40,995 bases of DNA, from the sequence record PP430152.1. One strand, given 5' to 3'. Under the pieces are notes generated by a model. That model made no database searches and was not told the DNA's origin. It saw nothing but the letters and a program-made list of their open reading frames with translations. Below are positions 24,252 to 25,322 of the stretch, piece after piece (position 1 is the first letter of the stretch; each line of letters starts with the position of its first letter). Origin of the DNA: Enterobacteria phage FtMidnight. Both the position numbers and the translations under genes were made by a program.

Positions 24252-25322
24252 TTAAAATGGAATATCTTTATCAGGGTCAAAAGGTTCAGGCTGTTTCAAA
24301 TCAAGCCCCATTATTGCGCCGCGAACATTGCCACCAAAGAAGTAAGCCTTGTTTTCTTGCTTTTCAAAATGCACTTTTTCAAAGGCTTTTTTAACAAGAT
24401 TCAAGTTCTTTATTTGAAAGCCCATGCCATCCGGTAAGCCTTCAATTTTATATGTTGTTGCGTCATCTTTACGAAGCATTGAAAAAATAGCGCCGTCCTG
24501 AAAGTAAACATTACCTTCAGGGCTAAACGCTTCAATTGCTTCAATAGCCCTGAAAAAGTCTTCAGGAACAGGCCAAGGGTTCAAATTATCACAATGCAAA
24601 ACAGCCTGATAATTCGGGTATCGTTCGCCGTAAAGTTGAGTTTTGATAAACGCGCCGTTTTCAAAGAAGAATGTTGCTGAAGAATGCGAAAAGCCAAAGC
24701 GCACAAGGTCAAGCTTGCTTTTCACAATTGCCATAACAGCCGATTTGGGCAACAGCAAACCGGGCGGCAAGTCGATACCGTGCCACGCTTCCAGCAAAGC
24801 CGCCCCGTTGGTTGCTACGGCGCTTCCGGCCTGAAGCAATACGGCGGCATAGGTTGCACTGTTTGCGCCGTCTGTTGCCAGCCCTGCAACGCTGGCAAGG
24901 GCTTCTTTTACTCGGTTGTCAATATCAGCGCAAGGTGAATCAGCTTCAGGTACTGGTACTTCATCAAAACCAACGCAAGGCACAAGGGCGCGGAAGTCAC
25001 CAGACGAAACAGCAAGCGCGTTTTCATTCAGTTGGGTTATTGAAAGGTCTTCACCAACCTTGGAAAGCGCGGCGGTAAGCTGCAATGTATGTGGGCAAGC
25101 TTCAAGGTCTTCTCTAATCGGAAACGCGGCGGTAACAATTCCGTCTGAAGCAATCGCCCAATTCTGGCGAACTTGGCAAAATTGCACACCAGTTGGCCCC
25201 GCTTTCTTTTGAGCAACTGAAATGAATTTCAACGCTTCAATTAAAGAAGCGGCGGGATTCAAAGCGCCTTTTTTACTTACAGCTTGCCGCCTTGCCCTGT
25301 TCTTTGGCTTTTCATTTGTCAT
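24252..25322 (-). CDS. DnaN-like sliding clamp with SSB-like C-terminal tip
   Basis: 356 aa from the ATG at 25322 (RBS AGGTGA); LYGERYPNYQAVL and VATNGAALLEAW resemble beta-clamp signatures (E. coli LVDGRFPDYRRVLP, ATDGHRLAV, from memory); ends ...DPDKDIPF. Confidence 0.55.
   Translation of the reverse strand: MTNEKPKNRARRQAVSKKGALNPAASLIEALKFISVAQKKAGPTGVQFCQVRQNWAIASDGIVTAAFPIREDLEACPHTLQLTAALSKVGEDLSITQLNENALAVSSGDFRALVPCVGFDEVPVPEADSPCADIDNRVKEALASVAGLATDGANSATYAAVLLQAGSAVATNGAALLEAWHGIDLPPGLLLPKSAVMAIVKSKLDLVRFGFSHSSATFFFENGAFIKTQLYGERYPNYQAVLHCDNLNPWPVPEDFFRAIEAIEAFSPEGNVYFQDGAIFSMLRKDDATTYKIEGLPDGMGFQIKNLNLVKKAFEKVHFEKQENKAYFFGGNVRGAIMGLDLKQPEPFDPDKDIPF

Follow-up and report, generated by a model that had tools for sequence, protein, structure and literature searches.

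The C-terminal tip of bacterial SSB, the protein that binds single-stranded DNA, serves genome maintenance in bacteria as its central recruiting peptide. Escherichia coli SSB ends in MDFDDDIPF (PMC11436948), and the chi subunit of the clamp loader binds the SSB tail (PMC11436948, PMC3045619). In the engineered fusions chi~SSB-Ct (PMC11436948) and PriB-SSBc (PMC8509808), the tip is active on a foreign carrier to which it is joined by a short flexible linker. Those fusions are laboratory constructs, whereas here we describe a natural and evolutionarily recurrent grafting of the same peptide. In Enterobacteria phage FtMidnight (record PP430152.1), one open reading frame (ORF) encodes a sliding clamp that ends in an SSB-like tip, D-K-D-I-P-F, and in related phages such a tip is found, almost always once per replication module, on the clamp, on an SF2 helicase or on a small four-cysteine (4-Cys) protein. 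Unless a related locus is named, positions refer to the window, by which we mean the whole 40,995-nucleotide (nt) stretch of FtMidnight DNA that was analysed.

The T7 gp4 helicase-primase and gp2.5 SSB have acidic, phenylalanine-terminated tails whose target is the phage polymerase/thioredoxin. T7 resembles relatives of FtMidnight in that a non-SSB replisome protein, the helicase, has an SSB-like acidic tail ending in Phe, but its helicase and SSB share one tail, which is not known to copy the host SSB tip, whereas the phages described here use two codes. Phage HK620 has a DUF669 protein that is a genuine SSB and recruits Sak4 by its NDYPPF end (Hutinet et al. 2018, PMC5928155). There, as in FtMidnight, DUF669 adjoins Sak4, and an SSB-like tip sits on a flexible tail within a recombination/replication module. 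The HK620 tip is on the SSB itself and lies off the host consensus, whereas in FtMidnight the DUF669 protein has the ending PWGQQ and another protein bears the host-like tip. Over 6-8 residues, among them the aromatic at -7, the acidic run and the terminal I-P-F, the phage tip obeys the consensus of the SSB C-terminal tip (SSB-Ct), and in the clamp it keeps the same layout, with the conserved tip placed at the end of a disordered linker that varies. It differs in its carriers, which are a clamp, an SF2 helicase or a 4-Cys protein and not an OB-fold core that binds single-stranded DNA, and in number, since SSB has four tips per tetramer and the phage clamp would have one on each protomer of a presumed dimer.

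There is nothing new in the clamp by itself, since Kazlauskas and Venclovas had listed homologues of Pol III beta from phage 73 and from BcepGomr in 2011 (PMC3201878). With DnaN and the phage 'Pol III beta' proteins it shares a three-domain fold, a YPNY-type motif, an acidic core and a partner polymerase that has a hydrophobic C-terminal peptide. Cellular DnaN differs in sequence (11-17% identity to the phage clamp, which matches no Pfam family), and it serves a family C polymerase, whereas the phage clamp is paired with a family-B polymerase and no cognate loader is encoded. DnaN also has neither the SSB-like tail nor the basic N-terminal extension, which is absent from cellular beta clamps. 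Clamp family and SSB tip are each well known; what is new here is their natural combination, a tip that wanders among three carriers while staying at one per module, and a second, private tip on the DUF669 SSB. The sequence-only reading, an earlier annotation of this DNA made without database searches, had offered the arrangement as one that it had not seen described, and in the open full-text literature searched, subscription-only literature being outside that search, we likewise found no account of phage clamps, helicases of this type or the small protein bearing an SSB-like tip.

A beta clamp with an SSB-like C-terminal tip

The clamp gene encodes 356 amino acids (aa) in a translation that begins MTNEKPKNRARRQAVSKK and ends ...LKQPEPFDPDKDIPF*. 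The start codon is the ATG at 25322, preceded by aaaGGTGAaagcaATG with a GGTGA ribosome-binding site; a longer ORF of 388 aa from 25418 was considered and rejected, its N-terminus being unlike those of any homologue. Both core strings on which the sequence-only reading had based its beta-clamp assignment, LYGERYPNYQAVL and VATNGAALLEAW, are present in the translation of 24252-25322. PHROGs places the protein in phrog_947, 'DNA polymerase processivity factor', and many deposited phage genomes annotate its homologues as replicative clamp or Pol III beta. Sequence comparison with more distant proteins was less informative: no Pfam family matched at E<=0.01, and the beta clamps that phmmer retrieved from the PDB scored no better than E 0.3-0.4, in the region of the YPNY motif.

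Structure prediction, proposed earlier as a check on the clamp fold, confirmed a three-domain bacterial beta-clamp fold, because a confident single-chain AlphaFold2 (AF2) model (66 homologues; predicted local distance difference test, pLDDT, 91.5; predicted template modelling score 0.85) was matched by Foldseek to DnaN and phage Pol III beta structures. Nearly all of the best 50 PDB matches listed were bacterial DnaN clamps, the remainder being chains of a mismatch-repair complex (8xla); the DnaN matches were full-length, with E~1e-18, template modelling scores of 0.70-0.75 and 11-17% identity, and the best viral structural matches were phage 'Pol III beta' proteins. The modelled core is acidic (isoelectric point, pI, ~5.0; family medians 5.35-5.56). 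It is preceded by the basic N-terminal extension that had been noted from the sequence, which is disordered (pLDDT 44) and has a conserved core, KKxRARxxA, with R11 nearly invariant. That core is conserved on tip-bearing and tip-less clamps, and the net charge of the extension, +4 to +6, has a median of +4 in both classes. At the other end, the 16-residue tail of linker and tip has pLDDT 63-68 versus ~96 for the core. The C-terminal extension of homologues has a median length of 24 aa and a net charge of -4, and the tail has a net charge of -3 to -4.

The resemblance of this tail to SSB-Ct, first pointed out from the DKDIPF-stop ending, extends over 6-8 residues and recurs in homologues. The alignment that had been suggested as a test of conservation covered 120 clamp homologues of 51-100% identity; the last residues are DIPF in 87 of them and [ILVMFPA]-P-[FYW] in 112, while the segment from the last core strand to the tip is free to vary in length and sequence. 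In a logo of 160 tip-bearing clamps, P(-2) is invariant (160/160) and F(-1) is found in 155, with Tyr in the others; D(-5), D(-4) and I(-3) are found in 130, 133 and 135, respectively, the last alternating with Val, and the preceding positions are E/D/N (-8), Y/F/M/D (-7) and D/E/S (-6). The resulting family consensus, [E/D]-[Y/F]-[D/E]-D-D-I-P-F, reproduces the E. coli SSB end DFDDDIPF position by position. The FtMidnight tip is itself off-consensus, with a rare Lys at -5 where 130 of the 160 homologues have Asp.

Several comparisons place this conservation far above background. Among all ORFs in the window, only the clamp ends in [ILVMFP]-P-[FYW]. Across related loci, a looser form of this ending was found in 36 of 15,540 unassigned ORF segments (0.23%) versus 54 of 89 clamp homologues, and in none of the polymerase, exonuclease, DUF669, Sak4 or primase homologues. 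More distant clamps (32-55% identity) have the tail in 48 of 149 cases, and the others stop just past the core. These comparisons support reading the clamp tail as a conserved functional motif, far beyond chance, and we regard the chance that its resemblance to SSB is fortuitous and functionless as vanishingly small: the motif is short, but it is kept across clamp cores of 32-98% identity while the linker varies, against a 0.23% background and with a complementary distribution over carriers. As a separate observation, one close clamp homologue (68% identity; L011, 9896-11083) ends ..DEDYSDDISV in place of ..DDIPF, which could be either a degenerate tip or a sequencing error.

One tip per replication module, on three carriers

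The sequence-only reading had treated the tip as a feature of the clamp, a view that did not survive comparison with relatives, in which a small 4-Cys protein or an SF2 helicase can bear it instead. The module in question (polymerase, clamp, helicase, exonuclease, DUF669, Sak4 and primase) is found in Septimatrevirus, Titanvirus, Lokivirus, Queuovirinae and many uncultured relatives. We examined 80 viral loci, selected by a clamp alignment reaching 32% identity, together with about a dozen isolated phages, and counted carriers in the 72 distinct loci that had both helicase and clamp in view. A tip was present in 63 of these modules, and in exactly one copy in 62. The carrier was the clamp in 39 loci, the small 4-Cys protein in 20 and the helicase in 3; in a single locus both clamp and small protein had one. 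Where the small protein is present, clamp and small-protein tips are complementary (2 x 2 table 1, 5; 21, 0; Fisher p=7e-5, kinship ignored), and parsimony on a neighbour-joining tree of 180 clamp cores requires at least 33 changes of tip state. On this pattern, the tip is a property of the replication module and not of the clamp, and since it occurs on three carriers, its explanation must fit any replisome carrier.

The small 4-Cys protein (~65-100 aa; phrog_23504; pattern CxxC..[W/F]..C..RPPAxVIVxGC) has a gene that directly follows that of the helicase and that usually lies just upstream of the one for the clamp. It matches no Pfam family and is 'hypothetical' or unannotated in deposited genomes. 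In loci with a tip-less clamp it ends in an acidic stretch followed by IPF, and where it stands beside a tip-bearing clamp its own tip is lost (L056, L063 and the L068-L077 group). When queuosine genes intervene between helicase and clamp, as in Rhizobium phage RHEph04 and Synechococcus phage Ssp-JY38, the small protein keeps with the helicase. In Queuovirinae, neither clamp nor small protein has the tip, which is on the SF2 helicase: JenP1 gp42 ends ..LPPDFDDDIPF, PaMx25 gp46 ..YADLDDDIPF and CAjan gp48 ..VEDPDYVPF. A long disordered tail precedes the SSB tip in the tip-bearing SF2 helicases.

A few clamps end differently again. The clamp at L076 2212-3267 ends PWGQADPNVGWGNN and P0184 ends ..QSTQSGWGTQA, so that a Q/G-rich 'WG' tail like that of DUF669 proteins replaces the DIPF tail. 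Because these clamps carry a 'WG' tail instead of DIPF, the comparison suggests that C-terminal tails are exchanged between replisome proteins.

A second tip on the DUF669 SSB

The neighbouring DUF669 protein belongs to phrog_6015, labelled 'single strand DNA binding protein'. As had been read from the sequence, its tail is rich in Gln, Gly and Pro and lacks an acidic tip, ending ...AAPWGQQ. Comparison with close relatives (at least 75% identity) revealed that this end is conserved in its own right: 108 of 120 homologues have a tip of the PWGQR type and none has one of the IPF type. The PWGQR type is also found at every related locus, whether or not the clamp ends in DIPF, and in every locus examined the C-termini of the SSB (PWGQR type) and of the tip carrier (DDIPF type) differ.

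These results divide the earlier proposal that the SSB interaction hub had been rewired onto the clamp. An SSB-like tip is indeed on the clamp and is missing from the DUF669 SSB, but it was not transferred from there. A swap would lead one to expect IPF-ending DUF669 proteins beside tip-less clamps; because DUF669 ends in the PWGQR type regardless of the clamp tip, the idea that the tip moved from SSB to clamp is wrong. The PWGQR tip may be a phage-private equivalent of the SSB tip. The second conserved tip, on the DUF669 SSB, suggests a wiring of these replisomes through several short peptides at protein C-termini.

Similarity to host SSB tips

An exact match to the end of a host SSB is found on a helicase. 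The last eight residues of the helicase of JenP1, whose host is E. coli, are DFDDDIPF and identical at 8/8 positions to the end of E. coli SSB. More broadly, phages whose hosts are alpha-, beta- or gammaproteobacteria, or in one case a cyanobacterium, keep the tip at the bacterial consensus. Variation at position -4 offers a finer comparison: phages of gammaproteobacterial hosts have Asp there, and all three isolated Rhodobacterales phages have Glu, on two carrier types (RcTitan clamp, DPDDEIPF; small proteins of Paracoccus vB_PmaS-R3, HVDEIPF, and Sulfitobacter M39, YIEEIPF). A scan of bacterial genomes for ORFs ending DDEIPF returned SSBs in 100 of 120 cases, and among the 80 matches listed with their source, 56 of the 67 SSB loci are named as alphaproteobacterial, including Rhodobacteraceae, Paracoccus and Rhodobacter. 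A search of the full-text literature for DEIPF gave no relevant match, only unrelated acronyms. Judged from sequence comparison, this partial tracking of host variants, together with retention of the bacterial consensus over large phage divergence, favours a host-directed role.

Proposed role and alternative explanations

We propose that the clamp would serve as processivity factor for the phage's own family-B DNA polymerase, which probably grips it via a C-terminal ...LxFF peptide. Joined to the clamp by a short flexible linker, the tip would mimic the host SSB C-terminal tip, dock proteins that possess an SSB-tip-binding pocket and most likely plug the phage replisome into the host SSB-partner network. 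For proteobacterial hosts we regard chi, a subunit of the host's own clamp loader, as the prime candidate target, since the phage has a presumed ring-type clamp but no loader; neither a clamp loader gene nor a canonical SSB gene is found among the genes of the whole 41-kb genome. Surveys of viral replicases report more than half of viral clamps without a loader (PMC3201878, PMC4889955), and clamps lacking loaders have been associated with the basic, direct DNA-binding type (PMC3201878). The FtMidnight clamp is not of that type, because its core is acidic (pI 5.0) and in this resembles ring clamps, and a UL42-like, loader-free processivity factor that binds DNA directly is unsupported by a pI that is not elevated. 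The proposal bears on how acidic ring-type phage beta clamps are loaded: if the phage replisome does capture chi-psi, that would explain how loader-less phage beta clamps reach DNA. An SSB tip on non-SSB replisome proteins would be a new viral route into, or against, the host SSB hub. We consider host SSB-tip mimicry that docks the phage replisome to SSB-tip-binding host proteins a tentative explanation, whose chances we put a little below even.

A number of points weigh against host mimicry. Tracking of the host is partial (RHEph04 has GDIPF, Sphingomonas phages KIPF or VIPF, and CAjan DYVPF), Asp and Glu at -4 differ only conservatively, and the DKDIPF of the window is less acidic than the family consensus. 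In nine of the 72 modules the sequence examined shows no tip; Acinetobacter phage Loki is one of them and a locus with the degenerate ending DDISV another, and the tip is thus dispensable in some lineages. A Synechococcus phage carries the tip, and cyanobacteria are not known to have chi; chi is therefore not a universal target, and that form of the proposal is weakened. Abundant host SSB would compete for the same pockets, and every target named here is one that we infer. Finally, the dependence of HK620 Sak4 on the NDYPPF tip of its DUF669 SSB (PMC5928155) is a precedent for a partner encoded by the phage.

That precedent leads to an explanation that we think possible but rather unlikely, in which the tip is an internal tether of the replisome to a phage partner, be it the Sak4-like annealase, the polymerase, the primase or the DUF669 SSB. 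Sak4 of HK620 depends on the six C-terminal residues of its DUF669 SSB (PMC5928155). Sak4 and DUF669 are present in nearly all modules, Queuovirinae included, and placement on any of three replisome proteins is what a tether within one complex would allow. The acidic Phe-terminated tails of T7 gp4 and gp2.5 add a further precedent. A contact between two phage proteins could drift, however, as it has in HK620 (NDYPPF) and T7 (DGDF), yet the tip holds to the bacterial consensus and follows the Rhodobacterales EIPF variant on two carriers. The phage SSB also has another tip, whereas T7 uses a single code for SSB and helicase alike. In an AF2 model that joined the tip to Sak4 by a GS linker (paired alignment of 27 sequences), no docking was seen, with Sak4 at pLDDT ~95 and the tip at 51-57, a weak negative read from pLDDT values. 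Because this value is below the 63-68 of the tip on the clamp alone, we find no support for Sak4 as the tip receptor.

Alternatively, the tip could act as a decoy against host SSB that blocks host replication or repair or blunts SSB-dependent nucleases or defence systems, sequestration having been raised in the sequence-only reading. An exact or near-exact match to host SSB-Ct would suit such a role, which we nonetheless judge improbable: the tip is always on a core replisome or replication-operon protein, once per module, and not on a dedicated, highly expressed inhibitor, and a single low-affinity peptide per protein would be a poor competitor of abundant tetrameric SSB. We give very little credence to an intramolecular regulator, in which the acidic tail folds onto the basic N-terminal extension or the DNA-facing clamp surface. 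Acidic SSB tails that occupy their own DNA-binding sites provide a model, and the clamp does have both a conserved basic extension (+4 to +6) and an acidic tail (-3 to -4). We rejected a pairing of extension and tail, since tip-less clamps have the extension just as tip-bearing ones do; the tip occurs also on helicase and small protein, and charge alone cannot account for an invariant I-P-F-COOH.

Host mimicry and a phage-private contact could also operate together. In this joint reading, which is doubtful as a whole, each replisome would follow a rule of one host SSB tip, a hopping adaptor that captures SSB-tip readers, chiefly chi-psi, and PWGQR would be a private code for phage partners. 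From the comparative pattern one would predict a single tip in each module, three carriers that can stand in for one another and a tip that partly tracks the host variant, and tractable relatives are available in the E. coli K-12 phages JenP1, Halfdan and CAjan and in the P. aeruginosa phages of Septimatrevirus and PaMx25.

SSB-like tips in other viral families

A census of viral ORFs ending DDDIPF-TAA returned at least 121, and 64 of those listed are canonical OB-fold SSBs. The list also includes alternative SSBs, among them gp2.5-like phrog_112 and phrog_7364, 18154, 4932, 378, 14578 and 743, and one SF2 helicase of the family described above, the rest falling into families of unknown function. 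At least 12 ORFs with this ending belong to phrog_1811 (73-76 aa; MRDxFxEALxxKYEADI...GIGEHPQF...), whose genomic setting is a module for replication and nucleotide metabolism that includes a family-A polymerase. Because the census is dominated by SSBs but includes other families, non-SSB tip carriers are a minority and probably not unique to the module described here. Members of phrog_2544, phrog_4477 and phrog_18187 are also DDDIPF-ended.

Genomic context of the clamp gene

The window is a near-complete siphophage genome (~41 kb, 46% G+C) that opens with the small terminase subunit followed by the structural left arm. Its distant nucleotide relatives (~74%) are Septimatrevirus phages of Pseudomonas, Stenotrophomonas and Xanthomonas hosts. 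The gene set comprises polymerase, clamp, SF2 helicase, primase, SSB, exonuclease, annealase, MazG and dCMP deaminase; coordinates of the features discussed are collected in Table 1.

Polymerase and clamp genes are probably translationally coupled, as judged from their spacing: the clamp stop codon, TAA, occupies 24252-24254, and the polymerase ATG lies 12 nt on, at 24239, with GGAAGG ahead of it. PDB sequence matches of the divergent polymerase are to Pol II and Pol alpha (~3e-5). Its C-terminal end is conserved in relatives (..TKQLQFF, ..ETASLFF, ..TAALSFF), and Queuovirinae polymerases have ends other than the LxFF type. We take the ..LxFF end to resemble the bacterial QLxLF clamp-binding consensus and treat it as a candidate motif only.

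Table 1. Positions of the FtMidnight features and of tip-bearing proteins at related loci
Feature	Locus	Positions	Strand	Evidence or remark
Beta-clamp homologue gene, 356 aa, stop included	window	24252..25322	minus	phrog_947, E 4e-64; AF2; Foldseek
Disordered basic N-terminal extension, residues 1-20, MTNEKPKNRARRQAVSKKGA	window	25263..25322	minus	pLDDT 44
Three-domain clamp core, residues 21-340	window	24303..25262	minus	AF2 (pLDDT ~96), Foldseek
Flexible linker DLKQPEPFDP, residues 341-350	window	24273..24302	minus	homologue comparison, pLDDT 63-68
SSB-like tip D-K-D-I-P-F, residues 351-356	window	24255..24272	minus	translation, homologue logo
Family-B DNA polymerase, divergent, 682 aa	window	22191..24239	minus	phrog_1252, E 2e-219
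Polymerase C-terminal ETGKLFF, candidate clamp-binding motif (QLxLF-like)	window	22194..22214	minus	homologue comparison
ORF, 134 aa, between helicase and clamp	window	25312..25716	minus	overlaps clamp start by 11 nt
SF2 DNA helicase, without tip (ends KYPEVLSAEW)	window	25721..27376	minus	phrog_16; Pfam/PHROGs
Cas4-like exonuclease	window	27369..28481	minus	phrog_1990; PHROGs
DUF669 SSB-like protein	window	28973..29653	minus	PF05037, E 2.4e-11; phrog_6015, E 6e-92
DUF669 C-terminal tip, (A/P)PWGQ(R/K) type	window	28973-28990	minus	homologue and locus comparison
Sak4-like RecA-fold annealase	window	29717..30469	minus	phrog_124, AAA_24; Pfam/PHROGs
DNA primase	window	31866..34202	plus	phrog_3022; PHROGs
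Small 4-Cys protein with tip	L060	9826-10023		locus comparison
Small 4-Cys protein with tip (Halfdan gp53)	L082	8468-8698		locus comparison
Small 4-Cys protein with tip (Ssp-JY38)	L090	7123-7368		locus comparison
Small 4-Cys protein with tip (Eidolon, unannotated)	L091	8692-8997		locus comparison
Small 4-Cys protein with tip (RHEph04 gp65)	L092	4010-4264		locus comparison
Tip-bearing helicase (CAjan gp48)	L083	1-1574		
Tip-bearing helicase (JenP1 gp42)	L084 / L088	1-1322 / 121-2124		
Tip-bearing helicase (PaMx25 gp46)	L085	112-1887		
Tip-bearing helicase (uncultured phage)	L154	11566-13314		
phrog_1811 protein	L137	2275-2505		
phrog_1811 protein	L127	2309-2545		
phrog_1811 proteins	L128, L133, L136, L144, L145, L149, L206-L209			

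The 134-aa ORF sits at the slot where relatives encode the small tip-bearing 4-Cys protein, and it matches nothing in Pfam or PHROGs. Its homologue at L066 7006-7536 is in an equivalent position in a locus without a tip. Upstream of it, the helicase end KYPE(V/I)L(S/G)(A/Y)E(W/Y/F) (25721-25750, minus strand) is kept in nearly all relatives and may be structural or another terminal motif. The probable start of Sak4 is the MNINNL methionine, with its ATG at 30433. The C-terminal part of the exonuclease (window ~27372-27530, minus strand) continues past its CX2CX5C cluster motif with an additional module, CxxC..WFC..IP..GC, and hhalign shows this 4-Cys module and the small protein that bears the tip in relatives to be homologues (87%, E 3.6e-6).

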